Shown: positions 293 to 25,926 of the stretch, in pieces
Layout: each line of letters opens with the position of its first letter
How positions within the stretch are numbered: position 1 is the stretch's first letter
Assembly: GCA_003971905.1 (NCBI GenBank)
Contig: RSEE01000014.1
Location: 1-64,000, forward strand
DNA: 64,000 nt
Source: Moniliella sp. 'wahieum'
Taxonomy: Eukaryota
Direction of reading: 5' to 3'
Made by a program: the position numbers and the translations under genes
The notes under the pieces: generated by a model
What the model was told of the DNA's origin: nothing
Databases searched by the model: none
Seen by the model: the letters and a program-made list of their open reading frames with translations, nothing else

Positions 293-326
<34 letters not shown>

Positions 327-2121
327 ATGAAAAGCACTTTGGAAGAGATAGTTAAAAGTACGTAAATTGCCAAAAGGGAAGCGTTGGAAGTCAGTGCCGG
401 AGCTGCGCCGCGTCTGCCCCTCTCGGGGTGTAAGTGGGCGGCGTGGGGCCCATGTCGGTTGGGTGGGGAGAAGGCGGCGCGGAAGGTGGCTTTCCCTTTG
501 GGGGGAGTGTTATAGCCGCGCTGTGGATGCCCTGCGGACGACCGAGGACTGCCGTGTGTGGACATGGGCTTAATGGCTTTCAGGGCCCGTCTTGAAACAC
601 GGACCAAGGAGTCTAACATGTATGCGAGTATGTGGGTGGCAACCCGGCGTGCGAAATGAAAGTGATGTGGGTACGAACCCTCGGGTGCAGTACCGGCCGG
701 CCCTGCGTGTGCGCACAGAGGGTCTGAGCAAGAGCATACCTGTTGGGACCCGAAAGATGGTGAACTTTGCCTGGCTAGGATGAAGCCAGGGAAACCCTGG
801 TGGAGGTCCGTCGCGGTTCTGACGTGCAAATCGATCGTTTGACTGGGCAAAGGGGCGAAAGACAATCGAACCATCTATAGCTGGTTCCTGCCGAAGTTTC
901 CCTCAGGATAGCAGAAGCTCGTGTGAGAACAATTTTATGAGGTAAAGCGAATGATTAGAGGCCTTGGGGACGAAATGTTCTTAACCTATTCTCAAACTTT
1001 AAATGCGTAAGAAGCACTTGCTGCTTGGTTGAGCTTGTGCGTTGAATGTGAGTTTCTAGTGGGCCATTTTTGGTAAGCAACTGGCGATGCGGATGAACCG
1101 ATCGTGTGGTTAAGGAGCCAGTCACGCTCATGAGACACCACAAAGGTGTTGGTACATCTAGACAGTTGGACGGTGGCCATGGAAGTCGGAATCCGCTAAG
1201 GAGTGGTAACAACTCACCAACCGAAGTACTAGCCCTGAAATGGATGGCGCTGAAGCGTGTCTCCCATACCACACCTTTCGTGCCAGAGTTGTGCGAAAGA
1301 GTAGGCAGGGCGCGGGGGTTTTGTGCCGAAGCGTTGGGCTGAGCCTGCGTGGAACGGCCCCTGGTGAGATCTTGGTGGCAGTAGCAAATATTCAAGCGAG
1401 TAACCTTGAAGACTGAAGTGGAGAAAGGTTCCATGGTAACACAGCAGTTGGACATGGGTGAGCCGATCCTAACCGATAGGCTGATGCTGATCATAGCACC
1501 CTTTTGGGGGGTGGTTCGGGAAAGGGAAGACGGTTAAGATTCCGTCGCCGGGATGAGGATGTATTGAGCGGTAACGCAAGCAAGCCAGGAGACGCTGGCG
1601 AGTACCCCAGGAAGAGTTTTCTTTTCTGCTTAACCATGCTGAGAATGCGCCGTGGAATCGGGTTATCCGGAGAGACGGTGCAGGGCGTGGGAAGAGTGCT
1701 GGCGCTACGCTGGCATCTGGTGTGTGCTCGACGGCCCGTGAAAATCCTGGTGCGTGTCTAGTCTCTCGCCCGTCGTACTGATCACCGCAGCAGGTCTCCA
1801 AGGTGAAGAGCCTCTAGTTGAAACGAGAACGTAGGTAAGGGAAGTCGGCAAATTTGATCCGTAACTTTGGGAAAGGATTGGCTCCAAGGCTTGGGTGCTG
1901 GCCGGGGCGGCGGGTGGCGGCTGGGCTGCCGGGGGCCAAGCTCCTGCGCTGGGCGGCGCGCTGCGGCGCGGTCCGAAAGTGCGCTGAACAAGCGACTTGG
2001 AACTGGTACGGACGCGGGAATCTGACTGTCTAATTAAAACATAGCATTGCGATGGCCATAACGTGGTGTTGACGCAATGTGATTTGCCCAGTGCTCTGAA
2101 TGTCAAAGTGAAGAATTCAAC

Positions 2122-2183
<62 letters not shown>

Positions 2184-2673
2184 TTAATTCGTGACGCGCA
2201 GAATGGATTAACGAGACTCCCACTGTCCCTATCTACTACGTTTGCGAAACCACAGCCTAGGGAACGGCTAGGCATCTACGGCGGGGCAAGAAGACCCTTT
2301 GAGCTTGACTCTAGTTTGACATTGTGAAGAGACTAGGGGGTGTAGGATAAGTGGGAGCGCAAGCGCCAGTGAAATACCACTACCCTTATCGTCTCTTTAC
2401 TTATTCAGTGAGGTGGGCCTGCGAGGAGACTCGCACCTTTGGAATTACGTCGGTTGACAACCCTTCCTGAAGACATTGTCAGGTGGGGAGTTTGGCTGGG
2501 CGCACATCTTTAAACAATACGCAGGTGTCCCAAGGGCAGCTCATGGAGAACAGAAATCTCCAGTAGACCAAAAGGGGAAATGCTGCCTTGATTTTACTCT
2601 TCAGTGTGGATGCAAACCATGAAAGTGTGGCCTATCGATCCTTTTGTTCTCCGGCTTTTGGAGCAGGAGGTGC

Positions 2674-2708
<35 letters not shown>

Positions 2709-2805
2709 AGCCAAGCGTTCATAGCGACGTTGCTTTTTGATCCATTCGGCTCTTCCTATCATGCCGTAGCAAATTCGGCAAGCGTTGGATTGTTCACCCA
2801 CCAAT

Positions 2806-2850
<45 letters not shown>

Positions 2851-3221
2851 ATCCTACCGTAACAAGCGAGTCAACAGTAGTTCCGGCGAGTACGAGAGGA
2901 ACACCCGGGGCCGGGCCTCCAGTTGAGCACCTGTCCGACCGGGCAGAGGTGCGCAGCCGCGCCCGCCGAGTAACACCTGAACGCCTCTAAGGTGGAACTC
3001 GTGCTAGACGCTCGCATGTGCGCTGGACTGGGTACACAATAGCGCAAGCCGTACACACACTGGGGGTCTCTGTGGCGGGGCGACGCCCTTCCACACGCCC
3101 CACAAGATACATGTTAGCACACTACAAATCCCCCGCAGACGACGGGCATGGTCCGAGCGCCGTACGCCGTAAGTGGCTTGTTCCCACGATCGGCTGAAGC
3201 CCATCTCGGCACCTCTGATTC
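1..3221 (+). rRNA. 28S (LSU) rRNA gene, 5'-partial, divergent and GC-rich
   Basis: Starts with AACTTAAGCATATCAATAAGCGGAGG (ITS4 primer region). Contains conserved LSU blocks CCCGTCTTGAAACACGGACCAAGGAG (586), TGACTCTCTTAAGGTAGCCAAATGCC (2151) and the sarcin-ricin loop AGTACGAGAGGAAC (~2889). The 3' end is estimated. Confidence 0.98.
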
Positions 3222-3532
3222 CCCCCCTCCCTCGGGAGGGGGTCCACTGTCCAAGTACGAACCCTAGAAAATACAGAAAAATAGCGCGCCTGCGGCGCAA
3301 GAAAGAAGAAAAAGAGGGAAAGAAAAGAGGGAAACTGCGTGAGCGGCGCCGGACGCTCTATCAGGTTTGAGCCATACCTTTTACTCCTCCTTTTTCAGTG
3401 CTGTTTACCCCCCCCTCTCCGAGCACCCCGAAACCCTACTCACACCAGCTCGCTCCACTGCGGCGATATCCCCCCTCGGGTCTCCCTAGGGCCCCCCTAG
3501 GGTTCTCCCTTAGTCTATTCTCCCTCCCTCCT

Positions 3533-3767: not shown

Positions 3768-3848
3768 ATCCGCGGCCATAGAACTGTGAAAGCACCGCAT
3801 CCCGTCCGATCTGCGAAGTTAACCACAGTATCGCCCAGTCAGTACTAC
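3768..3848 (+). rRNA. 5S rRNA gene, 3'-truncated (first 81 nt only), same orientation as 28S
   Basis: ATCCGCGGCCATAGAACTGTGAAAGCACCGCATCCCGTCCGATCTGCGAAGTTAACCACAGTATCGCCCAGTCAGTACTAC matches basidiomycete 5S. The expected GGTGGGGGACC... continuation is absent. Confidence 0.93.
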
Positions 3849-4496
3849 ACACTTCACCATATAGAGCTTATATATAGTCGCTGCACCTACCCACCGCTCC
3901 CCCCTCCGTAACCTATAGAGTCCATATATATACAGTTTTGCGTACGGTTGCAGCATCGTGCTTCCCTCGGCACTGTTCACCCTATAGCGTGGACACCCTC
4001 GAAGCGCGGCTTGGAATTATAATTAACCCTAGTTCATTCTGTTGCTGCTGCGGAGTCGCAACCCTAGTGCCGCGATTGCCAGTGAACTGTGCTGGTTTTC
4101 GGGCCGCCCCCTATCCTCTCACACCACACGTATGCCAAGGCATCGCTCTGACCACCACCACCTTCAGCATGAGTGTTAACTCTGTCGCCTGAGTCCGCGG
4201 CATGACCAATGCGGGGCCATGCACGGCATCGGGGCGCAGAGCCATGTTCGATTCGTCCCAACCGGTGCTCATTTCTCTTGGCCACTCGCATCCTCCCACA
4301 ACCCAGTCTTCCCCTTCCAATTGCCCTTTGTGCCGGCGAAGCGCCTAAGCCGAGAAGCGCAACGACATGCCGAACGTCAGCTCACTCATCGGCTGACCGC
4401 ATGCCCGCTTGGAGTGACTAGTAAGTCCCCACTATTGCCTCGCTCGCTCAGCGCTAACTATCAATGTGAAGGTATGATGTGCGTTGCGGGATCGCT

Positions 4497-4565
4497 TGTC
4501 CCCTTCGACTGCGTTGCGAAACCACAGCCTAGGGAACGGGCTAGGTGACTACGGCGGGGCAAGAA
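4497..4565 (+). repeat. Dispersed 28S rRNA fragment, copy 1 (matches 2224-2292)
   Basis: 26-nt exact match TTGCGAAACCACAGCCTAGGGAACGG (4514-4539 = 2242-2267) and 17-nt exact match CTACGGCGGGGCAAGAA (4549-4565 = 2276-2292). Confidence 0.92.
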
Positions 4566-4581
4566 TGTTTGTACGACGACG

Positions 4582-5250
4582 ATGCGCCCTCGACAAGGCG
4601 AGGGGTGCTCCCGCTTCGGGCATACGGCAGCGGTCTGCCAACAGCGGCGACTGGGGGCAAGAAGTGTGGCCTGTGCCGTATCCCCGGTCACCGACGCGAC
4701 CAATGCCAGGACGTGATTGATTCGCCGATCAGGGCGATTGCTCGCAAGAAAGGGGTACCCCCCAGCAAGTTGAATGCAGCACAGAAGACTCGTGGCGAAG
4801 GGGTCGGAGCGAATGGGATGGCAACAGCGGCTGCCGCGTTGGATGTGTCCCGGACAAGCGCGTGTGGTTCATCTGAAAGAGACGTGGTCGTGTTTACTAC
4901 TCCCCCTCCGAGTCGGAGGGGGAGTTTTTTGGCGGCGGTCAAGACGCCAGCGAGGCCCACGATGGGGGCGGGCGTGGTCGTGGGGCGTCAATGGGGCAGG
5001 TGCACCGGTCGACGCAGAGGGCAGCGCTCAACGCTTTTTTTGGGCGCAGGGCTGCCGTTGCGGAGGCGGCCTTCGTCCCCTTGCCGGGTGGATCCGACGA
5101 TGGGTTGGAGTCGGGCAAGGAAGCAGGGGACGGAATGGGAAGCGAGTGGGGTGGATCGGAGGGCGAGGAGGGCCCGACAATGAGGGTGAGGGGGCAGCTC
5201 GGGGCGGGCCTGCTCGAGGCGGCCTTTGGTCCACCCCCCCGGTCTAGCCC
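4582..5250 (+). mobile_element. Degenerate ORF with tandem N-terminal CCHC zinc knuckles; probable 5' part of a retroelement
   Basis: ATG at 4582 reads MRPRQGEGCSRFGHTAAVC, a knuckle whose first Cys is replaced by Gly. Adding one G to the G5 run at 4653-4657 continues the frame into GKKCGLCRIPGHRRDQC (perfect CX2CX4HX4C), followed by low-complexity sequence. Confidence 0.6.
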
Positions 5251-5519
5251 CTGGCCATGCTCCTTCCAGGGCAAAGAAAACATGCCATGTTCACCAACGT
5301 CGCTTGGGGCACCATGCTAGCCATCGCCACCACGCTCTCACACGTCGCTCCTCCTCACCAGCCCGTTACGTCCACCAACACTGCCACCACAGTAAACGCC
5401 ACTACTAAGCAGGTGCGTTGTTGCAGCGTTGGACATACGTCTGCATGCACATCCCCCCTCCCTCCTGCTTCTATTCTGCTCACCACCCACGTCTACTCTG
5501 CGTTGCCCCCCCCTCCCCA

Positions 5520-7190
5520 GGCCCAGCATACGGCTCCACGCACCGGGCATATGCCATTTGTCGTTCTTAAGGTGGGCCTACCGACATCCACGTCCGGTTG
5601 AGCGCTTCGGCGTTCTCTAGCAGCCTGGCCCAACTCGGGCGGCAGCTCGGTCAGTAGCTTCGTCTGTTGGTCGGCAAACATGGCGGTCGTCCGTTCCCGC
5701 TGCGACTGTCGGGTGGCCGCTGGCGCGTCTCTCTCTCTCTCTCTCTCCGGTCGGCAGCCAGCAATCACCGTTTCCACCCACACATCCGCCTCCTCGCATG
5801 AGGCCGCCCGCGCGTGGGGAGCAACGTCGAGGTGGGAGAAGAAGCCAAGCCCATCACTCCGGGCGGGCAGGGAAAGAAGAGCTTCGTCCCCCGTTGTCCC
5901 TCCACATCGTTCGGGTCGGCGCCCCGAATGGCCTTGACCTCTTGCCACAGCTGCACGTCAATCTCGCGCAACTCATCCACGAGATCGTCCGTCCGCATGC
6001 AGCGCAGCAAATGGCGGAGGTTGTGCTGCAGGCACGACCGCAAGAGCAGCAGCCGATCCTGCAGCAGGAGACCATGCAGGGCGGGGTAGCGAGAGGCTTG
6101 GTCCGCAATCTTGTCCCGCAGAAAGGCCAGGCGGGCGTCCCGGGGCCCAATGCACGAGCCGAGGACCTTGGCACCCTGGGCCTGCATCTCTTGCACGCTG
6201 GTGACTTTGGTCTTGGCCACGTTGAGCTCCACCCCGTCTTTCCGTGCTTCAGGGTGCCGGACACGAGCGACAGTGCGTTGGGCTCGCGCGCCAGCAGGTA
6301 GGTGTCGTCCAGGTAGGATACGACGACACCCGTGTCGCCGAGCGCGCGCTGGGCCGCGGCGAGCCTGTCCCGGATCGCGACGGAAAAGAAAAAGGGGCCA
6401 AAGGGATCGCCTTGCCGGACGCCTTGCTGGCTGACAATCGTGCGCACGTTCCCCGCACCGCCCGCGACCAGCTGCGTGTGCTGTCCGTATGCCCAGCGGT
6501 AAAAGGGCACCAGCTCGCGGCAGTGGTCGTTGACGGCCTGCGCCATCACATGTCGGTCCACGCTGTTGAACGCGTTCGTAAAGTCGAGCGACGTCACATA
6601 CTTGAACCGGTCCTCCCACTCGGGGCCGTTGCCTTGGTCGCCTCCGGTGACGACGCGGTCCAGCAGCCGCACAATCGGCTCCACGCCGCCCTTGGACTTG
6701 ACACCCAGCTGGGTGGGCAAGAGGGGCGAGCGGACGTCGATGTGCAGCAGGAGGATCGTGGCCAGGAGCCGGTAGATGAGCTCCCCACAGGCAATGGGGC
6801 GCACACCGCCGTCCGGCTTGGCAAGAGCCGTGAGCCTGCTGGTGCAGAGCAGCTGGGCGCCGGGGCAGGTGCCGGCGTACATGGCAGTAGCCATGGACTT
6901 GACAGCCGCCTTAAAGTCGTCGTGTTGGAGCGCGAGCCGCAGCAGCGGCTGGGACCAGCCACTGACGCCGCTCCCACGTCGCGGGAGAAGCTAGCAGCAG
7001 CACGGTCCACATCCTTGTCTTGAACCTCGAGATCTTCCAGCAGGTGGCCCTCGTCGTCCTCGATCGCGTCGCCGGTCAGCGTCGGCGGCGGGCGCTCGGC
7101 GACCTGCCGGACCACAATACCAGCCATCGGGTTGCGCGGGCCGGTCGGGTGCTTGTCCTGCAGCGACTGGTAGATACGGAGGACCGACTG
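5520..7190 (-). mobile_element. CRE-clade (Cnl1/MoTeR-like) non-LTR retrotransposon RT, copy 1; truncated and frameshifted, no endonuclease domain
   Basis: LQDKHPTGP, LAKPDGGVRPIACGELIYR, LDFTNAFNSVDR, GVRQGDPFGPFFFS, SYLDDTYL, LLLRSCLQHNLRHLLR, LSLPARSDGLGF and LENAEALNRTWM, then a degenerate CPVxGAVC. Confidence 0.92.
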
Positions 7191-8624
7191 GCGTATCTGG
7201 CGCCCAAGAACGTACGTATGATGATGATCTTTTCAGGGTCGTGGCGCGACCCCCCAGAAAAGGAACCGGAGGGGACGATATACTTACTGGATACACTTTG
7301 CCTTATCAGTTCGACCCAGGTTCGCAAGATGCTGAGCACTTAACCCCCACGTGTTTGTCGCCATGGAAGGCACGGCCCACCCCCAAGGAGCATCCTCCTT
7401 TTGACTTGAGTAATAGAGTTGCCTCCTTGGGCTGGCACACTATGCATGGCTCAGTGTTGACGAGCACATCTCTGCTTCATCCCTTGCCCCCTCGTCTACC
7501 TTGCTCCAGCTACGAATGTTCCTCTTGACTGGGATATCCGCGCGTGGCAAGGCTACTGTCGGCATTGTTCGCTTAGGATCGTCGCTGCCCCGCTGCCCAG
7601 ATTGTGATGGCGGTACGTTACCCACGCTCTCTTGTGCATTCCAAGTTACTGACAATCAGAGTAGATCAAACGCCCCACCAAGGAACCTGCCTGGATCAAT
7701 ACCCCTTTCCCAAGCATACGAGCGTACGCGGTGGCCATGGAGGAACTGCCCCACTTGACGATTGGCAACTGCACTGGCAAAGAAAGTACCCGCTCCACCC
7801 CCCTTCCGTGGAGTCTGCTCGGACGATCCTGATTGCCATTTGGCCGGGCGGAGACGTGCGAAGGCGGTGTCGGACCGGCACTCGCCTCTTTTAGCGGCCG
7901 GGCGCCACCCCTGCCGGATGGCCAGCTGTTTCTGGGCAACACGGCGGAAGCCTTCCACGCCATCTGCAGCGCTTCCTGCGGCAGGCGGGTCTGGAGCGGC
8001 TGTTGCTCGTGCGAAGGGAGAGACTAGGTTGGTAGTTTTTCTTGGCCGCAACGAGAGATGTTAGGCGACACAGCGAGCACCCCGACGAACAACAACAATC
8101 GACCGCCTCCGCGCTCGGCGCCCTCGCGGAGTCCGAGGAGCAGCTCGCAGGGCACGCCATGGACATGGCCTCGACGGCAGCTGCAGAGCATGGTGCTGGG
8201 CGGGACAACGGCCAAGGGGGTAGCCCAATGGCTGCGGCGACGGGGACAACGGGGACGACGGCGGTGAGGCGGGAGGCGTGGACGAGACGCGAGGGGACGC
8301 AGGATGCGCGACCAAAAGGCGCACTGGGTGCGCTGCGTGTCGAATGGGCGGGTCGGTAGACAAGCGCCGCTTTGCTTGGTGCGCTGTGCTGCCGAGCGTG
8401 GCAAACGCCTACTGCTGTCCCCAAGAATCGGCAGCGTAGGTTGGTTCGTGGCCAAGTCGGGCCGGTAGGGACGGGCCCGCCAAGGAGGGGGTACGTGGGC
8501 CGCGCAGCCACGCGCGGCGAGGGTCCAATGGCGGGAGTGTGGTGCTGGTGTGGGTGCGGGTGCCCCCAACGGCACAGCCCTGGGCCGCTCGGCGTCGTCG
8601 CGTTGAGGCCGCCGCGTCGGTTTA

Positions 8625-10600
8625 ACGCAGTTGCAATTCATCCACATTGGCTGCGGCCACCACCTACAACCCTAGCACCCCGCTGAATTTAATCTCGTCG
8701 CGTCTGCGCGGCTTTTGCTTCTGCGCCACCAGCCAGCACTGTCGGGCCGCTGCTGCAGCTCGCGTCCCAGCTTCTCCTCTCGCTGTACACCGAGCCGGAT
8801 GCGTTGCTCATGGCGCCCCTTGCCTCCGCTTCTTGGTCCGCTTCTTGCGGTCCATCCTTGTCCATGCAGCGCCCGATGCGAGCGCGCGGCTGGGAGGCAG
8901 GCCTAGGCGATCGGCTCCAACAGCAGGCCCCCATCTCGAGTCATCGCTACAAAGAACCTGGCCTTCTGTGCAAACGTGGACCGTGTCCTTCCCGATTCGG
9001 CTGCTTCTGCTCAAAGCGTGGTCGACACGATGCGTGGCGGAATACAAATCAACCTGAAGGCGGCCCACCCTTGGGGTACTGACAACTGGATTGTGCGTGT
9101 GGTGGCAACGAGGGCGGCAGTAGGGATTGCCCACTCCCCTTTGCTGGTCAGCAGCATGCATCGTGCACACCTCTCAGAGCCAGCAGCGCCCCAACCAACA
9201 GCAACACCACTTGCGGATGATTCATTTGCTGGTATTTTCCGCCCTCCCATTTGCGTTGCACATTGGCCAACGGCAGCGCGCCAACCTCACTCCCCGATGG
9301 AGCGCCGACAGCCTCCTTGTATCGATTTAGTTGTCTCCCCAAATCGGCCGTGCTTGGGCTCCCAAGAGCAACCATTTGCCACAAAGGCTTGGTGGCAACT
9401 GGCGTACGCAGAAGTGGACCCATGACCTCTGAGCAGCTGTGCGTGTGTTTGGGCTTGTTGGAGTGGGGTGCAGCAACAAACGTTTGCCACATCAACCTGT
9501 GGAGCATTCTTGACGTGGGTACGATCTTTACCTTTGCAACGCGGGTGCCAACAATGACGACATTCCGGTATTTTTGCCAGCAGTTGCACTGGCAAGGTGG
9601 GGTTGGATATAGGGCCCTTCATTACTGTGAGGCTGGTCGTACCGCCGCTTCCTCCATCGACGAGTGAGGCTGGGCTCATATTCCCCATGTCCCTCATGGC
9701 GGTGTTGCGACCAAGACGGGGTTACGCTTCCATCAAGGTACACTGCGGCGCGGCGTGGCATCGTGTCGTTCCGTTTCTGTTGCGTTTACATCCGCAAAAG
9801 TCTATCGCGCCGCCGCTTTCTTTTCGGCCTTACGGCCACGCCGAATTGCTAGACGTGCGAATCATTTGTACGCTATCTTGCGCAGCGTTGGTACCGCTCT
9901 ACGACTATATGTTTCTCTGGTACGAAAGCACCCATGCCTTACTCTACTGTCATATACTGACCAGCGCACTAAACAGGTACAAACTTATCTTGCCGGAGAC
10001 GAATAGCCGATGGAAACAAGAAAGTCATCACCCCCCATCTGCAGAGGTATCGCCTCCGCACCAGATTCATCACCCCGCCAGGCAACGACAACGTCGGGTG
10101 ATGGTCGGGGGGCTGCCAGGTCCCACCGCCTACGTGGACCGGGGGCGCTCCCAATGAACACAATGGGCACGCTCTGCAAGAGGCTTGGGGTCTATTCTAA
10201 TGACGTGGTTCGAACCATTGCCGGTGCATACCGCGACGTGTGTCGATGAAGAAGGAGACGCGCATCCGGAGATGGCCTCGGTCACGCTTGAGGAATGAGG
10301 GACAGCTTGGTGGTATGCGACCAACAGGATGAAAAGAAGTCCTGCTACTGATCGGCCCTGATGTGCTTGGTCGCGGCGCTCACCCCCTCGAGGATTTACT
10401 TCCAGGATGGGCCGAGCGCGCCAACTTTGTTGGTATGAATGTCGATGCTTGTACGTGGTCCACATTCTTCTGTCGTGGCACAAGTTGCTGACATTTGTCA
10501 TTGATCAGGCGCTGTCCTGGAGGCAATCGGGTCCCACGCGTCATGCAGCCCTTCAATTCGTCACGTCAACGCCCCCCCCGCCAGTCATTCAACGTGCCAA
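8625..10600 (+). pseudogene. Decayed copy of an unidentified intron-containing multicopy gene family
   Basis: Homologous to 12560-12960, 19885-20830, 23205-23800 and 25927-27250. Has a GTACG...CTGAC...ACAG intron at 9920-9976. No domain recognised. Confidence 0.55.
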
Positions 10601-12993
10601 TTGAGGGTACGTCGACATGGCACTGCCATGTTTAGCTATCGGCGCTGCACCACAAGCCACGCAAAGCCGGCTTCGCACTCCCTGCAGTTCCGCCGGCACA
10701 GAGGGCCCTCAAGTTGCTACCGAGGAGCAAGTGCTGTTCGATGCTGTTATGTTATGCGGGGCCGGTACGGGGGTGCGGGGGGCGTTCGGCCGCAGTGGGT
10801 TTCCTTTCGCACAATCACAGCACTACGAAAGAAGATGGGGGTCGGCGGCGACAGGCTTGTCTGCTGCCAGAGAACGCGTTTGCTAACCGAGCAGGCCGGC
10901 CCAGCCGCAGTCCCATTGCGTCACCCTTGCACGAAACCAGGCCTGTCGTTGCCATTCAGGAGGATGAAGGGCGCCGCATCTCGAACCCCTGAAGAGGATG
11001 CTGATGGTGCAGCTCGCGTCAATGAGCCTCGCTCTCGATTGAATATTGACGATTGATGCGATGGTTGGTCCGCCGCGCTTGCCGTTCGAGTGGGGTGTCG
11101 ACCACCCCCAAACCCAAGCCGTGTCGGAGTGCATCCTCAGCCTCACATCTTCTGTCTGCCACCCCCTGATCATTCGCCACTCCTTATCATTTACATTTCC
11201 TCGTTCCCCCTGCCCCAACCCTCGCCCCCCCCGTGTTCCTGGGCAGGTACCCACACGGCCAGCTCCTGGTACGGTTCTTGCGGCATGCCCTTGTGCATGC
11301 AAAGATAGCGGCTGTCATCACGACAGCCGTCGTTGGAGCGGTGGCCCAGTTAGTCGCTCGAATTGTCTCGTTATCTGTCCCGCAACAATCACTGTCCCCG
11401 CGAGCGCATGTGTACCGCAGGTCCTAACCAAGAGAAGCAAGGCGGTGGGTATGCCATCCCGTCAATCTGGTCTGGCTTAATGGCCTCCTGACCATTTTTG
11501 TCCCAAGTGGATCTAAGCTGTCTTGCTCGTGCTTGCTTGCGTTAGGCGCATCATCTTGGGGAACTTGTTGCTGGCACTGCACTCCGGGAGAGCCAAACAT
11601 GGTCATTCATGCCTTGCGGCTGTCTTGCAGTGATCCCGCCACACAGACGCCTCTGAACTCCACCGCCCAAGGAACATCATTCGCCATCAAACGGCCTGGC
11701 GACTGCAATGTTGGAGACTGGTTCCGCTATTCTTCCAGTGCGGCGGCGCAGCTTCATGAGGCCCTGGTACTGTTTTCGTGCAGTGTTGTACACCTTGTTC
11801 GAGCCCTACAAATGTGGCGCGATGTCGCCGCCGTTCCCGACGATAGGATTAGCTGCTGTCGCTATGGGCGGTATCTCTGAAACTCTTGGTGCGCACATGC
11901 GTTTCGACAAAGCTTACTGGCCCAGATTATGACGATGGTACGTTGGCCCCGCTCTATTGTACTCTCTTGTGGTGCGAGTTACTGACAACCGACGCAGACC
12001 GAACACAGTGCCAGTAGCAATTGGGACGAACGTGCTTGCCCAAAGAAACTGCCTGTATCAATGCCTCTCAGCCAGAGCATGCGACGCGTACGCGGTGAAC
12101 GTGCAGGCACCGCTCCGCTTGACGCCGCCCTCGCTAGACAAGTGCGCGCACTGCTCTCCCCTCTGTTGTACGGAAGGCGTGGGTTGGGGTTTGGACAGCA
12201 AGGGATGTGCGAAACCAGTATCCGACGTGCTCCACCCGCCCGCTTCAGCAGCTGTGCGCCAGGCCTGCGTGGTAGCGAGCTGTGTCTGGCCAACACGGCG
12301 GGCACCTTGCCGCCGTCGGCAACGCTCCCTCCTGCAGTGCAAGTCACAGGGCTGCTACGGCGGCAGCAGACAGCCGAGCAGCCGAGCACCCCGCAAACAG
12401 CAATCGACTGCCTCTCCGCGAGACGCGCAGAAAGGGCTGTTCCCGTCGTGGGGTTAATGTTAAACGTGCGTTTGCCGCCGCGCTTGGCGCGCAGAAGCTC
12501 CTCCACATTGGCCGCGGCCGCACCGCCCAAGCCCCCCTCCCCGATTCTGGCCTGGCTGCGTTAGGACCGCTTTGCCTCTCCACGACCTACCCGCTGGGAC
12601 TCTGCTATGGCCCATGTCCTTGCTTCCTTCTCGCGCTGCGCACCAAGCCGTATGCGTGCTCACGGGGGCCCACGCCCCTCGGCTCCGCTCTTTGCTGTCC
12701 ATCCTTGTCGATGCAGTGCCTGAACTGACATCGAGAGCGCGGTTGCGTTACCGAGCTCGACATGATGCGCAGCTGTGGAATGCAAATCAACCTGGAGGCG
12801 ACCCCCCATGGGATGCCGTATCTTTGATGGTGGTGATTCCTGTACGTGTCCATTTCCTTCTGCTGAAACCCAAGTTGCTGACGTTTCACCTTAGCTGGAC
12901 GCAGCTCTAGAGGCAATGTGCGCGCACTCAAGCAGCCCTGAACTCGCCACGTCAACGTCCCCCAGCCAGTTGGGCAAAGCGCCAATACACTTG

Positions 12994-14300
12994 TATCACC
13001 TGACTGACGTTCTTGCGGGCCAAGAATGTGGATCAAACCACTTGCTACCTCTGCCTGGCATCCCTCCCCCCTTACCGGTTGTTCATTTTGCGGTTCGTGC
13101 TTGCAGCAACGCCTCCGCTATCTGTTTGTTTCGCTCGAGGCGGAGAAACGAATCCAGCACGGGCCAAACTCCCGTGGGTAGGTGAGCAGCAATGGCACGA
13201 GGAAAGTCATCCGGGGCGACGATCGGGGCAATGTTGTCGCTCAATAGTGGGACCAAGTTGACATCCCGAAGCCTGTCGCTTTGGTCAGATCACTGTTGCT
13301 CTCTCTCCTGTTGACTTTGCACCACCGACCAACGCATTGACTTGGGCAGCGAGGCGAACGTACGGGTGGACCAGGTGATCGGCAGCCAACCAGAGGGGTC
13401 CGAGCCGGCTCCTCGTCTGGCACAAGAAAAAGACCACGGCTTTGCTCGCCATAGCATACGAAGCTGCTGCCTCCTGTGACTACATCGCTTCGGTTCCTGG
13501 CTGATCGAGAAAGCCGAAGTGCTCGATCGGAACTGGAGGTCGGTGGTGCCCTCCAAACCAGCGTTTCGCTTTCCTGGCCAGGGGATCATGGCTGGGTTAC
13601 GGGGCATTCCGGCCACTATGGTAAAGCCCGACCGATCTCACAATCCGGAGCGAATTGAACGCTCCCACGCCACTGTCACCGTTGCTGAGGTCACGATTGC
13701 AAACGCAGGTACTCCAAGAGCCCATCCATATCGAACAGCCTAACCCATTGGCCTTCGGAGACAACGTGCGACGCCTATCCTACGTCGTTTCTGCCATTCG
13801 GCTCGCCTCTGTCCCTCCGGCACACGCGCTGTGCAAGAAGGAGATGAACGCCTTGTTCGACACGGAGGCCAAAGCAAAGCACCAACGTACAATCCTTGTG
13901 CAACGGGTGACTAGCTCTGTTCCCTTGGTTTTCGCTGCGGGTGACTACGCCTATATTAGTCCAGGGCTGCTTTGGCGTACTCCAAGTGGAGAGCAAGCTT
14001 CGGTTGCCATTGCGCATTCACCTTGCCGCTCGGACTCGCGCGGTGCGAGCTAAGGTATAAGGATCACCCCATCCAAATGCACCACTCCTTTAAGACATGG
14101 ACCAAGGGCCTTTTACTTGATTCCCCGCCGACTGCGTTGCCAAACCACAGCCTAGGAGGCGGACTATGCATTCGCGGTGCTTTGGCTGCCCAAGAATGCA
14201 CGACGAGCAAGATGTGTATCCGCAGAAACGTTCTGGACTGCATGCGCTACTTTAGTTGCGAAAGTGTCCAAGGCACTCTTGACTGGAGATGGAGCGGGCA
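12994..14300 (+). repeat. ~1.3 kb duplicated segment, copy 1; includes 28S fragment copy 2 at ~14122-14179
   Basis: Collinear with 17154-18400 from TATCACCTGACTGA...CAAGAATGTGGATCAAA to GTCCAAGGCACTCTTG. Confidence 0.85.
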
Positions 14301-14310
14301 ATACAAACTT

Positions 14311-16030
14311 GTTCCTTCTCCACGTTTCCACTCCACCGCCACTTTCTCCTCCGCCTTGCCCGCCGTCTGGAGGTTGTGGCAAATCATGTGGCCCTCTTCC
14401 GTGATGCGCGTGAACTAGGCCGGTGGGAACTAGCGTAACACCAACAGCTCAGGCGCGCGCGCCAAGCCAGGCAGTCGATGTCGGCTGTGCTCACCCACTC
14501 TGGCAGCCGAAGCTGTCCACCCGGCAGTTCCGATTCGGGTCCATTCGAGTGGTGGAGTGCGCTGTGCCCTCGCCGCCGGGCAGCACAATGGTGCGGCGTC
14601 GGTTCACAGAGGCGGCCGGTCGATTGGGAAGAGCGTATTTAGATCATCCGACGATGACGCAGTGTTCAACCTGCTTGCCCTGCCGAAGGCGGGCTTGCGG
14701 GGCGGCTCTTCGGCCGACGTTTGTGCCACCCTCAAGGCCTATCCGGAGGTGGTTTGGCCGCCAGCTATGGAGAAGGGCTCTGCAGAGCGCCAGCGTTCCG
14801 ATGATTTGACCTGTGCACACCGCCAGGTCAAAGAGGGAATGCTGGGCGTGCGGCGCGCACGTTGCATCCCCAGGATGCAGAGTGGGGTTTGGGCCGGAAA
14901 CGGTTGAGCCCTGCATGCGAAGCACCCTGCAGGCCCGAAGAACCCGCTAGCTGGTTTGGTGGTTCGGCACATGTCAGAGCGGGCCTCGCCTGGTTTAACA
15001 GGCGACACCGCAGCGGCGGACGCCGGTGAGCCAACCCCCCAAGGTTTTGGAGTTGGATGATAAGGACATCTATCGCGCAGCAAGCAGCTTCTCCGGGACG
15101 TGGGGGGAGGCGTGGGCGGATGGTCGGTGCCCCTTCTCGAGGGCTCTAAAGCACGATGCCTTTAGAGCGGCTCTAAAGCACGATGCCTTTAGAGCGGCTC
15201 TGAAAGCCATGGCGTGTGTCATGTTTCATGGGACGTGCCCCCGGGTGCTCAGCTGTTGTGCACCAGTAGGTTGACGGCACTTGCGAAGCCTGAGGGCGGA
15301 GTAAGACCGATCGCCTGTGGTGAGCTAATTTACCGCGTAATGGCCAAGGCACTTCTTCTTCATTTGGATGTGGTTACTCCTCTGCTCCACAAGCAGTTGG
15401 GCGTCAAGTCCAACGGTGTGGAGCGATTGTGCGGCTTATGGATCGTTTGGTTAGTGGGGAAGAGGGGATCCGGCTTGGGCCGTTCAACTATGTGCTGTCG
15501 TTGGATTTTCAGAATGCGTTCAACTCGAGCGACCGGGCAACGGTGGCCCAGGCGGTGAGTGACTATTCGCCCGAGCTCCTTCCTTTCTTTTGTTGGGCTT
15601 ATGGGAAGCACACCAGTTGGTGTTGGGTGATGCAGGCAGCTTTGGAACCCTCCTGAGCCAGCAGGGAGTGAGGCAGGGCGACCCCTTTGGTCCCTTCTTC
15701 TTCTCTGTCGGCATCCGCGGTCTGCTCGAACAGGCGCAGCGCGCGTTGGGCGACGATGGGTTGGTGGTGTCCTATTTGGGTGACACTTATGTGTTGTCGC
15801 GCAATGCCAATGCGCTGCAGCTGGTATCGCGTGTCGTGGCGCAGAGCAAGACGGGCTGGAACTCAATCTGAGCAAGACGAAGACTGTCTCGACGCAGAAG
15901 TTGCGTCTGGAGGCGGCACCCTCCTCGGCTCGTGCGTGGGTCCCAGAGCAGCTCGGCTCGCTTTTCTGCAGGCAAAGGTGGAGGCTTAGGCAGCGCTTTA
16001 CCTCATCTTGCACGGGATGCCGCTGCAGGC
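14311..16030 (+). mobile_element. CRE-clade non-LTR retrotransposon, copy 2 (N-terminal region plus RT), inactive
   Basis: FTEAAGRLGRAYLDHP, VFNLLALPKAGL, LAKPEGGVRPIACGELIYR, LDFQNAFNS and GVRQGDPFGPFFFS. The catalytic YLDD is mutated to YLGD. Confidence 0.9.
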
Positions 16031-16211
16031 AGATGCTGCTCGACTGCTCTGTTGTGCGGGACGAGCGCGTAGAACAGGTCGCGCGGCTGCGCTTCGTCCC
16101 CCTCGTTGTATCCCCCTGAAGAGGATGGAGACGGGGTTGATGAACCTCAATCTCGATTGGATACGGAACGTTGAAGTAACTCCCTCGCGCACCTAACCCA
16201 AGCTGTGCCAA

Positions 16212-16965
16212 GTGAATCCCCATCTCGCCCCTTGCCACTCGCAGCAATGTTGTGTCCCCATTGCTCCCCCCTTTGTTCTCCCTTCCCCAGCTCGGCCCCA
16301 CGCTCTGCTGTCTCACACAGACCGGCCAGCTCCTCTTCTCCCAGAGTGGCTGGGTGTTCCTCAAATGGCAACCGCATTGATCCCCACCCAGGACTTACCG
16401 AATGGGTCGAACGGCCCCCTTGTTCCAACAGCAGGCCCAAACTCTTCTCAGACTCACTTGCGGCGTGACTGCAAAGACCTCCACGATCCACAATCCTTTC
16501 CACACGGCGAACGCATTCCTCACCTCAACATTGCTCTGCCGACCGTCAGCGCAATTCATACTAAAGACGAAACGGACCATCCACGCAGCCCTACTCAATA
16601 CCGGGGCCATGATTGGCTCTATTGGTTTTACACGTACGACGACGACCCCCACCCACACTTCCCCTGGTATGATGTACTGACCGACGCGTTTCTGCAGGCC
16701 GGAACGTACAGGCACGCATATGCAGACGGAGATGGATCATCAAGAGTGTCCAAGCACTAGTGCAACAACATGGATCAAACCAGTGCCCGCTTTTCATTTA
16801 AGTGGGAGATATTGGTGGTTCGGCATCGCTTCGCACTTGGGCATCCCCCAACAAGATGACGCTGTGGATGCTGCCAAGTCATATGCTTCCAGGCTCCGTC
16901 TCGTCTTGGGGCGAATATTTTACTGTTGCTTAGTAGAGTGCCCTCCCCACTCTTCTCCCAGATGA
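16212..16965 (+). CDS. Hypothetical protein or relic (aromatic/Asp-rich), frameshifted
   Basis: Protein-like ORF (HDWLYWFYTYDDDPHPHFPWYDVLTDAF) that probably continues into 16720..16965. No motif recognised. Confidence 0.3.
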
Positions 16966-17153
16966 GAATCAAGTCCAAGGGACAGTACGGCAGATTGTGC
17001 GTCAGCTGGGCACTTCATTACAGAAGGCGATCGAGGCGAAGGGCCCGAGTAAACAAGAACAGGTTCCAATGTATAACGTGGCTCAACTTCAAACACAGCG
17101 TACAAGATGTGCAAGCGCAACATCCCAAGATCGTGGGCTTCTGTTGGGGATAG

Positions 17154-18400
17154 TATCACCTGACTGATGCTCTTGCGAGTCAAGAATGTGGATCAAAAAC
17201 CACTGCCTACCCCTGCCTGAAATCCCTCCCGTTGCCCCACCGGTTGTTCATTTTGCGGTTCGTGCGTGCAGCAACCCCTCCGCCATCTGTTTCGCTCGAG
17301 GCGGCAAAACGGATCTAGCACGGGCCAAACTCCCCTGGGCAGGTGAGCCGCAATGGCACGAGGCAAGTCATCCGGGGCGACGATTGCGGCAATGTGGTCG
17401 ATCAATGGTAGAGCCAAGTTGGCATCCCGATGCCCGTCGGTTTGGGCAGATCAGTCTTGCTCTCTCCTCTTGACTTTGCTCGACAGACCAGGGCATTGAC
17501 TTGCAGAGAGAGGTGAACGTATTGGCGAACGAGCTCATCGGCTGTGATGTCGGGGCATAAGAGCCTGCTCCTCGACACGGCGCAAGGAAGAGACGGCGGT
17601 TTTTCTCACCCGTCAGCATACGAAACCGTTGCCTCCCGCGATTACACCGATTTGGCTCCTGGCTGATCGAGAATGCAGAAGGGCTCGATCAGAGCTGGAG
17701 GTCGGGGGTGCCCTCTAATCCAGCGCTCGCTTTTCCTGGCCACGGGGTCATGGCTGGGTTGCGGGACATTGCTGGGTTGCGAGACATTGCGGCCACTATG
17801 GTAGAGCCCGACCCATCCAACAATCCGGAGCGAATTGGACGCTCCCACATCACTGTCGCCCGCACTCAGATCACGATGGCTAAAGCAGGTGCTCCAAAGA
17901 ACCCATCCATATTGAACGGCCTAACCCTTTGGTCATTCGGGGACAAGACGTGCGACGCCTATCCTGGGCCGTGCCTGCCATCCACTCGTTGCCGCCCCGC
18001 CGGCACACGCGCTGTGCAAGAAGGAAATGATCACCTTGTTCGACGCGGAGGCCAAAACAAAGGGCCAACGCACAATTTTAGTGTAACGGGTGTTTAACTC
18101 TGTTCCCTTGGTCTTCCTTGAGGGTGACTACGCCTGTGGTTAGTCCAGGGCTGCTTTGGCACACTTCCAGTGGAGAGCAAGCGTTGGTTGTCATTCCCAT
18201 TCGCCTTGCCGCTCGGAGTCTTGCCTGTGCGAGCAATGGTATACCTGCCGACCATGTTGCAAAACCACAGCCTGGGAGCCGGGCTAGGCATTTGCGGTGC
18301 TTTGGCTGCTCAAGAATACAAGACGAGCAAGATGTGTATCCGCAGAACGTTCTGGACTGCGCTCTACTTTGGCCACGAATGGGTCCAAGGCACTCTTGGT
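17154..18400 (+). repeat. ~1.3 kb duplicated segment, copy 2; includes 28S fragment copy 3 at ~18244-18299
   Basis: Collinear with 12994-14300. Contains TTGCAAAACCACAGCCTGGGAGCCGGGCTAGGCAT. Confidence 0.85.
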
Positions 18401-19109
18401 GTACGACTCCTCGGCTAGCACTGCAGTGCGTCCAGTCAAATTGGTGTGGTGGCCTCGTTTTGCTCTGAAATTCGGCGTAAGGAGGTGGCTCGAGCCCCCA
18501 ACCTCGCCATCAGGATGGTACCCGAAAATGGTGAGGTCCGTTGCCGACCCCGTTCCCGTCACGCCGCCAATTGCCCAAGCTGGGCCGAAAGTAGCCAGCC
18601 AGCGTAGTGGGCCGGGCGGCCGGGCGCACCCTAGGGCCTCGTGAGCTGGGCGGGATGGAGCGTTGTGTCGGTCGTCCTTGCTTGAGGGGCATGTTTCTGT
18701 GATGGTCGGCTCTGGCTCGCGACGTGAGGGACCGTACTCACGCGTTCCCTGGGTTTTCTTCGTACGTTCATTCCCCCAAACAGCCGGTCGGCATGGAATG
18801 CATGAGAACCACACCCTACCCGACTGTTGTTCCTCTGGTCTATGCCCTCGCTCGAACGAGGCGATGGTGGGTAGTGGGATGTTGATCCGTCTCTGGGCGG
18901 GATGTGGGTCGGGGGCAGGGCGGGAGGGGGCAGCTGTGGTGGCAGCAGACGCAGTCCGAGCGGTGCTTCGATACAGGCGGCGGGGGGTCACCGGTCACCG
19001 GTCACCGGTCACCAGAGCAGGATTGATTGCACGATTGAAACTTGAAACGATCCTGTGGCGGGTAAACCAACAGGCCGCTGGCGCCTCCTGACACGGCCAA
19101 GTTGACCTG

Positions 19110-19885
19110 ATCCCTTCTCCATCTTTCCACCACCTCCTTCTCATCCGCCTTGCCGCCGCCTGGAGTTTGTGGCGAAGCGTGTGGCCTGCCGTGGTGAGTG
19201 TGCCAGCGGCACGGTGGGAACTTGCGTAACATCGCCAGCCGCTATGCCAGGCAGCCGTGGGCTCAGCTCAAACGTACCACCGAAGCGGACACCTGGCAGT
19301 TCTGATTCAGATCCATTCGAATGATGGAGCGCGCAGCAGGCTCGCGGCCGGCCAGCGCGATGGTGCCGCTTCTATTCAAACAGGCTGCGGGTCGCTTGGG
19401 AATTGCCTATCCAGATCATCTCGACGATCGCGATGCGTTTAAGCTGCTTGCTCCTTCCGAAGGCGGGCAGGCCCGGAGGCTCCTCGATCGACGTTTGCGC
19501 CTCTCTCAGGGCCGATCCCGAGGGGGCCTGGCCACCAGCGATCGATTTTGGCCGCGTGCGCACCGCCAGGTCAAAGCAGGCGCCCTAGGGCGGACGACGC
19601 GGCGGTGAGGTTGGGCCACAGGCGGCTCTGCGCCCTCGTTGCACGGGTTGCCGCTGCAGGACCGTCTGCTTTGTTGCGGGGGGCTCTGCAACCGAATATT
19701 CGGCACCTGCCCCGTTCAATGAGGGCGGAGGATCCGGCGGACCAGCTCCAGCAGATGGACAAGTAGCTCTGGCGTGATGTGAAGGCAATCCGGGAGGCGC
19801 GGATCCGAGAGTGTTGCGGCTGGTCAGAGGTGGGACAAAGCTCTTTTCTCCTTGCCAACCCGTATGGGTGGCTTAGGCTTTCGAG
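19110..19885 (+). mobile_element. CRE-clade relic, copy 3, RT core deleted
   Basis: LFKQAAGRLGIAYPDH, LLPKAG and AHRQVKAGALG are joined directly to the post-RT segment LQPNIRHLPRSMRAED...GGLGF. The start aligns with 14311. Confidence 0.8.
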
Positions 19886-22989: not shown

Positions 22990-23205
22990 CCCGGCAATGT
23001 TTGCGCGTGGCTCTGCAGCAGAACCTGCGGCACCTGCTCAGCTCGATGCGGACAGAGCGCCTGGCGGACCAGCTCCACCAGCTCGACGAGCAGCTTGGCG
23101 CGAGGTCAAGGCAATCGGGGGAGCGGACCCGAGCGCTGAGGATGGTCAGAAGTGTGGGACAGGGCTCTTTTCTCCTTGCCAGCCGAATGGGCGGCTTAGG
23201 CTTTC
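22990..23205 (+). mobile_element. CRE-clade relic, copy 4 (post-RT fragment)
   Basis: RVALQQNLRHLLSSMRTERLADQLHQLDEQL...RMGGLGF, homologous to copy 1 RSCLQHNLRHLLRCMRTDDLVDEL. Confidence 0.8.
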
Positions 23206-25892: not shown

Positions 25893-25926
25893 TATCGCTC
25901 AGTACCCAAGCCTTGCTGGGTTGTAA

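Follow-up and report, generated by a model that had tools for sequence, protein, structure and literature searches.

Decayed CRE-group retrotransposons headed by a 28S-derived segment at the edge of a fungal rDNA locus, and a possible change of target

Retrotransposon remains beside the rDNA

The window, which is the whole 64-kb stretch of DNA that was analysed, opens in a 28S rRNA gene, and the remains of retrotransposons lie directly beside the rDNA, with ordinary genes from about 24.5 kb (Table 1). With positions 1-4300 as the blastn query against the rest of the window, a 69-nt segment of the 28S gene, referred to here as U, recurred at three sites: 28S 2224-2292 matched copy 1 in full (87.1% over 70 columns, E 5e-16), 28S 2242-2281 matched 18257-18297 in copy 3 (E 4e-4) and 28S 2242-2275 matched 14137-14171 in copy 2 (E 0.02). 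The rest of the rDNA gave no repeat elsewhere in the window with E below 0.2, and the 28S sequence from 2293 onward did not recur there. Copy 1 (87% identity) is much nearer to the 28S than the other two copies. In the alignments all three copies of U finish in CAAGAA followed by T, and next come a spacer (15 nt in copies 2 and 3), an ATG and a zinc knuckle or its remains. A preliminary description of the same sequence had reported the recurrence of 28S 2224-2292 at three sites, the closer resemblance of copy 1 and this succession of CAAGAA, a spacer of 15-16 nt, ATG and knuckle remains, all of which were borne out. A coding function of U was rejected, as the reading frame through it is not the same in copy 1 as in copies 2 and 3. 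The 28S gene of the window, aligned to the consensus over 2050-2450, has no interruption at 2223/2224 or 2292/2293. Several one-base gaps at conserved positions were noticed in this gene.

Table 1. Positions of the rRNA genes, the copies of U and the element copies in the window
Feature	Position	Strand	Evidence or remarks
28S (LSU) rRNA gene, cut at the window 5' end	1..3223	+	Rfam RF02543, 2500.9 bits
28S segment, source of leader U	2224..2292	+	blastn and pairwise identities
5S rRNA gene	3768..3889	+	Rfam RF00001, 59.7 bits
U copy 1	4497..4565	+	61/70 aligned columns identical to 28S 2224-2292
Element copy 1, 5' part	4566..4710	+	16-nt spacer, ATG 4582, remnant of knuckle 1, complete knuckle 2
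Copy A, 5'-truncated element	4900..7178	-	Pfam RVT_1, profile of 57 homologs, tblastn
X, element remnant comprising the 3' third (profile about 600-1000) with stop codon and short 3' UTR	12993..14123	+	
U copy 2	14124..14196	+	64% identity to 28S; 8-nt insertion, also in copy 3
B, full-length but decayed element	14197..18243	+	ATG 14212, knuckle remains, profile hits
U copy 3	18244..18316	+	67% identity to 28S; directly abuts the 3' end of B
C, decayed element	18317..19881	+	ATG 18332; self-blast, profile
Detached scrap of the same element, covering profile 627-693	23001..23204	+	Duplicated together with the repeat following C

Copy 1 starts 608 nt downstream of the 5S rRNA gene and carries a remnant of a first knuckle (CSRFGHTAAVC, 4606-4638) and, in a different frame, a complete second knuckle of the form CX2CX4HX4C (4665-4706), which is an addition to the preliminary description; the sequence GGGGCAAGAA at the end of U (4556-4565) is found again at 4654-4663, just before this second knuckle. 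The knuckle remains of copy 3 read LYFGHEWVQG. The inverted reverse transcriptase (RT) that had been noted near copy 1 belongs to copy A (Pfam RVT_1, E 3e-10 on 5857-6990, minus strand), in which that stretch is an open frame of 378 codons. Positions 277-779 of the profile of homologs fall at 7178..5573 of copy A, and weaker remains of the CCHC motif and restriction-like endonuclease (RLE) continue down to about 5345. A 5' part of copy A with its own U was sought and rejected: resemblance to B ends near 7163 with no U further on, so copy A is 5'-truncated. Its 3' end near 4900 is an estimate.

Self-blast, the profile and the C-terminal motif give a head-to-tail array in the order X 3' end, U, B, U, C. 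X is 80-84% identical to 17153-18243 in B by self-blast, matches copy A by blastn (E 2e-16) and contains weak colinear profile hits and the C-terminal motif; its 3' end abuts the first base of U copy 2, and its last 64 nt (14060-14123) are absent from copy 3. B, flanked by U at both sides, matches profile positions 132-606 at 14459-15983 and resumes with its 3' third at 17153-18243; between them, at about 16030-17152, an insertion of ~1.1 kb contains another RT scrap (16910-17105). In C, a foreign insert at 18399-19112, which confirms the ~700-bp insert already ascribed to copy 3, is followed by the 5' part (19113-19601); profile positions from about 265 to 604 are missing through an internal deletion, and positions 604-693 follow at 19608-19881, up to the interruption of the element by another repeat. 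The boundary between units of the array is exactly that between the element 3' UTR and U. Segmental duplication is widespread from 4.3 to 27 kb: 7595-9079 matches 11920-12812 and 26851-27261, and 9542-10509 matches 19882-20821, 23205-23750 and 25901-26473. By self-blast, copies 2 and 3 with their flanks are likewise one duplication, as had been proposed, so that the window contains one independent head-to-tail junction (element 3' end, U, element) and two junctions of U with an element.

Probable affiliation with fungal telomere-targeting elements

Judged by their sequences, the elements are decayed copies of one non-LTR retrotransposon family of the RLE type, similar to the fungal Cnl1 and MoTeR elements of the CRE group; the RVT_1 matches, the homologs and the grouping in the RT tree agree on the CRE-group assignment made in the preliminary description. 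Pfam RVT_1 was matched on 5857-6990 of the minus strand (E 3.3e-10) and on 15563-15868 of the plus strand (E 4.9e-4), and a profile of 57 full-length homologs gave E 1e-103 on 6244-6975 of the minus strand. Searches returned 210 longer homologs at E up to 0.001 (best 2e-61) from Tilletia, Filobasidium, Wallemia, Aureobasidium and Rhynchosporium, to which a second search added Cryptococcus neoformans. The best RT identity to any relative is ~49% among the proteins searched, and with no close relative among them the lineage is known from this window alone. Against the PDB, one relative (P0009) matches R2 proteins (2e-10). A quick RT tree of 80 rows, built without named MoTeR, Cnl1 or CRE reference sequences and with key branches below the 95 mark, places copy A with a Tilletia protein (P0025; SH-aLRT 90) within a fungal group of 37 rows (87), which takes in 14 of the 16 rows whose loci have telomere-like repeats.

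Full-length relatives have, by eye, a C-terminal CCHC motif and a PD-(D/E)XK endonuclease. The window retains decayed remains of this region, with weak colinear profile hits (E 0.35-8), a C-terminal motif scoring 4.3 bits in a targeted test and, in copy A, CPVRGAVC..RIE; the catalytic residues are illegible in all these remains. The N-terminus of the window copies has CCHC-knuckle motifs and no C2H2 motif; among 120 homologs the CX2CX4HX4C knuckle occurs in none and N-terminal C2H2-like motifs occur in 44. No 28S-derived peptide was found at the N-termini of 208 homologs; the sequence FGHT in P0025, the sole match among them, was taken as chance.

C-strand telomere-like runs are present on the sense strand of 24 of 80 metagenome loci containing relatives, versus 7 of 80 on the antisense strand, and telomere-like repeats lie beside the ORF in 8 of the 10 contigs whose ends were inspected. 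In one contig (L001) a head-to-tail joint has ~20 nt of repeats between units, and in another (L005) the repeats stop ~17 nt before the ATG. Sequence resembling 28S was found near relatives at none of the 80 metagenome loci and none of the 14 genome-collection loci, and no relatives were found among viral contigs. Telomeric flanks had been named in advance as evidence against a 28S-specific family, and all fetched relatives with recognisable flanks are telomeric.

MoTeR1 of Magnaporthe, Cnl1 of Cryptococcus and FoTeR of Fusarium are telomere-targeting RLE elements of the CRE group, and in the quick RT tree the window RT groups with fungal elements of that kind; a FoTeR clade has been described (PMC12857005), and MoTeR arrays consist of units separated by TTAGGG tracts (PMC7367193). 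The window elements resemble them in having a single ORF with an RT and a probable C-terminal CCHC/RLE region, in forming head-to-tail arrays with a short target-like tract between units, and in carrying a short target-like leader before the ATG. They differ in that the tract between units is a 69-nt piece of 28S instead of telomere repeats, in having CCHC knuckles instead of C2H2 fingers at the N-terminus, and in adjoining rDNA instead of a chromosome end. A search of the 64-kb window for (CCCTAA)2 with up to one mismatch gave 0 matches. The array X, U, B, U, C thus places U exactly where relatives carry telomere repeats.

Origin and inheritance of the 28S-derived leader

At positions 7, 11 and 15 of U, the three copies have derived bases in common (C, G and G), which are absent from both the window 28S and the Rfam eukaryotic consensus. 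These shared changes imply that U had a single origin and was inherited, not recopied from the target, so that all copies represent one event; the fusion of U and element arose once. Both U and the window 28S have GGGGCAAGAA and CCTAGG..CTAGG at places where the eukaryotic consensus is GGGGAAAGAA and CCAAGG..CUUGG, and the source of U is a 28S of this host lineage. By alignment, copy 1 is homologous to copies 2 and 3 from U through the spacer and ATG to the first knuckle. The sharing of the junction by at least two lineages, which had been presented as independent evidence, does not stand as such, because the derived bases of U and the sequence downstream are shared. The head-to-tail array, the single origin of U, the host-specific 28S states in U and the CCHC N-terminus all extend the preliminary description.

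The 5' and 3' boundaries of U are equal in copy 1 and in copies 2 and 3, and the sequence upstream is unrelated, a pattern more readily explained by an RNA that begins with U than by segmental duplication. Most likely, U and the element are one heritable transposition unit. A single chance capture spread only by segmental duplication had been offered as a way in which the 28S-specific interpretation might fail; the single origin is upheld, whereas the spread looks like retrotransposition of U together with the element, not segmental duplication alone. According to an improbable alternative, an old insertion within or adjacent to a 28S fragment on the decaying margin of the rDNA array was copied across 4-24 kb by segmental duplication and unequal crossing-over, and no RNA carrying U ever existed. 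The patchwork of duplicated segments in this region would suit such a history, as would the descent of copies 2 and 3 from one such duplication, but random duplication would bring flanking DNA along, whereas copy 1 shares exactly U and element sequence with copies 2 and 3 and nothing upstream. In addition, the unit boundary of the array coincides with the element 3' UTR and U, and copy 1 cannot be aligned to copies 2 and 3 past the first ~90 nt, yet its U is still 65-67% identical to theirs.

U could also be a long target-site duplication, produced by a bottom-strand nick at 2223/2224 and a top-strand nick at 2292/2293; every insertion would thereby be flanked by U on both sides, and arrays would grow by insertion into, or unequal crossing-over between, copies of U. 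The family would then be 28S-specific, with 2223/2224 as its defining site. The 2223/2224 position is presumably the bottom-strand nick site of insect R1. The target-site duplications of SLACS and R9 measure 49 bp and 126 bp, respectively. The presence of U on both sides of the full element B and the abutment of the X 3' end on the first base of U agree with such an origin, and descent of the U copies by duplication would explain the shared derived bases. Target-site duplications form for all known CRE-clade elements, R8 and R9, in the account of PMC3636483. Against this origin, U copy 1 is preceded by neither 28S nor a recognisable element: its 5' flank matched the 28S upstream of 2224 no better than did 661 of 2000 shuffled sequences, by which an extension of 28S homology above 2224 was rejected, and matched the 3' ends of B and X no better than 232 and 245 of 500, with no tblastx match to the element 3' end. 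No copy of U continues into 28S 2293 onward, and there is one independent instance of U on both sides of an element; overall this origin is improbable, if slightly less so than duplication of DNA alone. The word AAGGTAT is common to the sequence upstream of copy 1 and the element 3' ends compared. An extension of 28S homology above 2224 in copy 2 (14040-14123 versus 28S 2120-2223) was rejected as well (score 10, reached by 308 of 2000 shuffles); the extra 64 nt of copy 2, tested as 14040-14123, have their best whole-28S match elsewhere than 2120-2223.

A possible change of target from telomeres to 28S

The best overall explanation, given a probability of about 0.4, is an RLE family with a heritable leader copied from 28S, whose target moved from telomere repeats to the 28S gene; dead copies of its elements would, as a joint part of this explanation, have accumulated in the ~20 kb that separate the last rDNA unit from the first ordinary genes. 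Because U matches the telomere-like leader and spacer of relatives exactly in place and approximately in size, it may be regarded as a target-homology module, and we infer that U travels in RNA and serves targeting and that 28S is or was the target. Targeting of 28S is reasonable by analogy and is held tentatively. The transposition unit would consist of the 69-nt U, 15-16 nt, and the start codon of a single ORF encoding CCHC knuckles, RT and CCHC/RLE. Second-strand synthesis would be primed by the end of the first cDNA strand, which is complementary to U and would anneal to 28S DNA on the upstream side of the cut, a mechanism also proposed for R2 with RNA that keeps upstream 28S. The target of the lineage would have moved from telomere repeats to 28S near GGGGCAAGAA|GACCC, and the copies in the window would be off-target or rearranged relics at the array edge. 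A fuller form of this explanation, slightly less probable than the general one, is that a lineage of the Cnl1/MoTeR clade switched its target to the LSU rRNA gene by replacing a telomere-like leader with a heritable arm of 69 nt with 28S homology, which would guide the joining to a peptidyl-transferase-loop site, GGGGCAAGAA|GACCC, and by replacing C2H2 fingers with CCHC knuckles, and that its insertion may give a 69-bp target duplication with the first nick at the insect R1 site.

The insertion at GGGGCAAGAA|GACCC claimed in the preliminary description is not seen in the window: its sole 28S gene is intact at the proposed site, no copy lies inside it, and by blastn no element in the window is followed by GACCC or 28S 2293 onward. 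The main rival to 28S targeting is a single capture by template switching, in which the RT passed from element RNA to abundant 28S rRNA and copied 69 nt, and the chimera founded a sub-family in which U is a passenger or a leader with another use and 28S is not targeted. Non-LTR reverse transcriptases are known to capture abundant small RNAs, and the switch may have been aided by GGGGCAAGAA(G), which 28S has in common with the sequence preceding the element knuckles; the repetition of GGGGCAAGAA before knuckle 2 is as expected of a microhomology-guided joint. The single origin of U, the lack of a 28S-resident copy and of a 3' 28S junction in the window, and the telomeric flanks of the fetched relatives all fit this capture. 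On the other hand, a passenger upstream of the element start is normally not transcribed or passed on, whereas U with identical boundaries heads copy 1 and copies 2 and 3, which differ strongly downstream; U takes the position of the target-like leader of relatives to the base; telomere repeats are absent from the window; and the cluster is located at the rDNA edge. On balance such a capture is somewhat less probable than the change of target.

R2, the 28S-specific element of animals, is also of the RLE type, and R2 proteins are the nearest solved structures to relative P0009. Some R2 RNAs keep upstream 28S sequence, thought to guide 5' joining (PMC3774820). The proposed site in the window differs in lying 128 nt downstream of the R2 site, U differs in length (69 nt versus up to 36 nt in R2) and in being inherited with its own mutations, no copy lies inside 28S, and the window RT falls in a different clade in the quick RT tree. 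The preliminary description had likened U to plain co-transcribed flanking 28S as in R2, which conflicts with the shared derived bases, and had suggested looking for a self-cleaving ribozyme at the 5' junction; positions 4000-20000 matched no known ribozyme family, HDV-like ribozymes included, at E up to 5, a search that a new type of ribozyme would escape. The sole RNA-family match in 4000-20000 was an unrelated ctRNA (E 1.7).

In CRE1/CRE2, SLACS and CZAR, site-specific elements of spliced-leader genes in trypanosomatids, transcripts start with host-gene sequence. These elements, which belong to the same broad group as the fungal elements (PMC12857005) and make target-site duplications (PMC3636483), differ from those of the window in host kingdom and target, and are likened to them by description, not by sequence. 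Site-specific RLE retrotransposons are known to use 28S as target in animals, and telomeres serve as target in fungi; the literature searched yielded no 28S-specific non-LTR element from a fungus, and the table of a review of rDNA transposons (PMC10946416) gives fungi only LTR or Ty elements in spacers. If the change of target is real, the family would give both the fungi and the CRE group their first rDNA-specific non-LTR element, with target choice carried partly by the element RNA, and would represent a natural telomere-to-rDNA switch within one clade that can be seen in the leader module of the RNA and in the module of N-terminal nucleic-acid-binding motifs; how R2-like elements may be re-aimed is an open question behind their use for gene insertion. 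On the conservative reading alone, a piece of host 28S as a heritable 5' leader is still unusual and a useful marker for tracing the family in related fungi.

The 28S-derived leader and its single origin

When the rDNA part of the window was compared by blastn with the remainder, nucleotides 2224-2292 of the 28S rRNA gene (a 69-nt piece designated U) were found to recur as copy 1 at 4497-4565 (87.1% identity, E 5e-16) and more weakly at 18257-18297 and 14137-14171, within copy 3 (18244-18316) and copy 2 (14124-14196), respectively; no other rDNA piece recurs in the rest of the window by this search, and 28S sequence from 2293 onward recurs nowhere in the window. In alignments, CAAGAA/T closes all three copies, and after a spacer of 16, 15 and 15 nt comes an ATG (4582, 14212 and 18332 for copies 1, 2 and 3), with knuckle remnants behind it (CSRFGHTAAVC in copy 1, LYFGHEWVQG in copy 3), so that the threefold recurrence of a 28S piece with CAAGAA, a 15-16 nt spacer, an ATG and knuckle remains, reported in the preliminary description, is confirmed by blastn and by alignment. 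In copy 1 there is, in addition, a perfect CX2CX4HX4C knuckle (CGLCRIPGHRRDQC, 4665-4706) that is shifted by one frame. The 28S homology could not be traced further upstream than 2224, where scores were equalled or exceeded by 308 of 2000 and by 661 of 2000 shuffles.

Identity to the 28S is 87% for U copy 1, 64% for copy 2 and 67% for copy 3; between copies 2 and 3 it is 85%, and between these two and copy 1 it is 65-67%. Position 11 of U is G in all three copies, and positions 7 and 15 are C and G, respectively, in both copy 1 and copy 2; at each of these positions the window's 28S and the Rfam consensus have the same base as one another, different from that of U. Since these derived bases are common to the copies, and copy 1 is homologous to copies 2 and 3 from the spacer through the ATG to the first knuckle, U was joined to the element a single time and inherited thereafter; the two lineages formerly counted as sharing the junction are therefore not independent evidence for it. 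U also carries states of the window's 28S that are absent from the eukaryotic consensus (GGGGCAAGAA and CCTAGG..CTAGG), and thus was taken from a 28S of this host lineage. Two short words are repeated at copy 1, TGCGTTGCG at 4480-4488 (just 5' of U) and 4510-4518 (within U), and GGGGCAAGAA at 4556-4565 (the end of U) and 4654-4663 (just before knuckle 2); these direct repeats may reflect microhomology or re-copying at the 5' joint. A single capture, in which reverse transcriptase copied 28S rRNA once by template switching, remains a standing alternative that agrees with the single origin of U and with the recurrence of GGGGCAAGAA before knuckle 2, but leaves unexplained the transmission of a passenger with fixed ends.

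The elements and their head-to-tail array

Pfam RVT_1 matches lie at 5857-6990 (minus strand) and 15563-15868 (plus strand). The open reverse transcriptase frame of the minus-strand copy A (378 codons) has 210 longer homologs (best E 2e-61, 48% identity), those named being from Tilletia, Filobasidium, Wallemia, Aureobasidium and Rhynchosporium; a second search added Cryptococcus neoformans, Fusarium and Synchytrium, again none closer than ~49%. One match from the second search is labelled Rickettsiaceae and is most likely a eukaryotic contaminant. Full-length homologs are single proteins with, by eye, N-terminal C2H2 motifs, a reverse transcriptase, and a C-terminal CCHC and endonuclease-like region, and for one of them the closest solved structures are those of R2 proteins. 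The element family is identified. Among 120 homologs checked for N-terminal motifs, 44 have C2H2-like motifs and none has a CCHC knuckle, whereas the elements of the window open with CCHC knuckles.

Features of the window, with element pieces placed on a profile of 57 full-length homologs
Feature	Positions	Strand	Profile positions
28S rRNA gene (window opens inside it)	1-3223	+	
5S rRNA gene, downstream of 28S	3768-3889	+	
Copy A	7178..5573	-	277-779
B	14459-15983	+	132-606
C	19671-19881	+	626-693
Element scrap	23001-23204	+	

The similarity of copy A to B ends at ~7163 with no U beyond, so copy A is 5'-truncated; its decayed CCHC/RLE remains continue to ~5345. A perfect G+C-rich palindrome (4899-4925) lies near its estimated 3' end, and B contains a 27-nt tandem repeat (2.4 copies, 15142-15207).

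The 1.1 kb on the 5' side of U copies 2 and 3 (12993-14059 and 17153-18243, 80-84% alike) is, judged from sequence, the 3' third of the same element, because it matches the DNA of copy A (5574-6043 versus 13551-13088, E 2e-16), gives weak profile hits (629-645 and 762-796) that are colinear and correctly spaced, bears the C-terminal motif ...AKAK...PLVFAAG, and has a stop codon ~70 nt upstream of U. The order of the array is X (a 3' third), U, B, U, C, where B is full length and interrupted by an insertion of ~1.1 kb (~16030-17152) holding another reverse transcriptase scrap, and C is a 5' part with a foreign insert (18399-19112) and an internal deletion. U copy 3 adjoins the 3' UTR of B directly, and the joint at copy 2 has 64 additional nucleotides. 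As 12993-14771 and 17153-19545 are colinear duplicates, the array provides one independent head-to-tail junction. A heritable leader of 28S origin in a tandem array is newly demonstrated here.

What copy 1 has in common with copies 2 and 3 is exactly U and the start of the element. The sequence upstream of copy 1 has no match upstream of copies 2 and 3 by blastn or tblastx, and its scores against the 3' end of B and that of X were equalled or exceeded by 232 of 500 and 245 of 500 shuffles; more than ~90 nt downstream, copy 1 cannot be aligned to copies 2 and 3, whereas U itself remains 65-67% alike. The unit boundary within the array falls exactly between 3' UTR and U. Boundaries kept at U in this way, as they would be if the RNA began at the first base of U, point to U plus element as a retrotransposition unit, a reading given a probability of roughly 70% in a region rich in segmental duplications. 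That abundance of segmental duplications would suit an origin of all copies as DNA-level debris only, which remains a competing account, but random segmental duplication would ignore the boundaries of U and element.

Relatives and the question of a 28S target

With an alignment of 16 homologs as query, 80 loci were found in metagenome contigs; a scan of a prokaryote genome collection added 14, in assemblies labelled bacterial (Tolypothrix, Absicoccus, Nonomuraea and several MAGs), most likely on eukaryotic contaminant contigs. No 28S-like sequence was found at any of the 80 or the 14 loci. C-strand telomere-like repeats occur on the element sense strand at 24 of the 80 metagenome loci and on the antisense strand at 7, and bound close relatives in 8 of 10 contigs whose ends were inspected. 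At one locus (L001) units are joined head-to-tail with ~20 nt of repeats in between, and at another (L005) the ATG begins ~17 nt after the repeats end; the same arrangement is described for MoTeR arrays in PMC7367193 and for FoTeRs in PMC12857005. In a quick-search tree of 80 reverse transcriptase rows, which are without named reference elements, the partner of copy A is a Tilletia caries protein (SH-aLRT 90), and both lie within a fungal group of 37 rows (87) to which 14 of the 16 telomere-repeat rows belong; the other large clade, also of 37 rows, holds none. A second large clade of distant relatives (L045-L080; 27-33% identity, mostly contigs of 3-5 kb) has no 28S and no telomere-like repeats except four short runs. 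On a 115 kb metagenome contig (L041), a complete U4 snRNA gene (9755-9886, 71.8 bits) lies ~115 nt upstream of a 5'-truncated relative in the same direction, by chance, by target preference or as a template-switch product.

Compared with these telomere-flanked relatives, U occupies their telomere-like position, before the ATG and between units, and the 64-kb window has no telomere repeat. Targeting of 28S by the family is plausible by analogy. The proposed insertion into 28S just after U, near the E. coli 2060/2061 equivalent, did not find support, as no copy interrupts a 28S gene and no 3' 28S junction exists within the window; nor did any ribozyme family match 4000-20000 at E up to 5. A variant that remains under consideration would make U a 69-bp target-site duplication with the first nick at 2223/2224, the R1 nick site; for comparison, the duplication of SLACS is 49 bp and that of R9 126 bp. 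This variant would account for U on both sides of B, and PMC3636483 states that duplications are made by CRE-clade elements, but the unrelated flank upstream of copy 1 speaks against it. The literature searched contained no fungal 28S-specific non-LTR element, and for the rDNA spacers of fungi the text consulted from the review PMC10946416 names LTR or Ty elements only.

Genomic setting and assembly quality

Ordinary genes (inositol polyphosphate kinase, GDPD, class-V aminotransferase, chitin synthase and thioredoxin-domain proteins) begin at ~24.5 kb, and the U-headed elements lie within the ~20 kb of repeat debris that separates them from the last rDNA unit. Because G+C is ~55-66% throughout, long open frames alone carry little meaning. 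In 2050-2450, conserved positions of the Rfam consensus are absent from the window's 28S in six one-base gaps and one two-base gap, and the chitin synthase domain (35125-36668) is split between two overlapping frames; its profile positions 97 and 106 are only 36 nt apart, which leaves no space for an intron. These are either indel errors of the assembly or signs of a degenerate terminal rDNA unit and gene; since indels in the assembly are likely, a frameshift within an element is a weak sign of decay, whereas in-frame stops and the between-copy identities of 59-85% are unaffected. Between the rDNA and the genes the window is a mosaic of segmental duplications. Non-element segments (7595-10601, 11920-12986, 19882-20821, 23205-23750 and 25901-27261) are repeated at 66-88% identity, some adjoining the inositol polyphosphate kinase gene and others in the debris zone.
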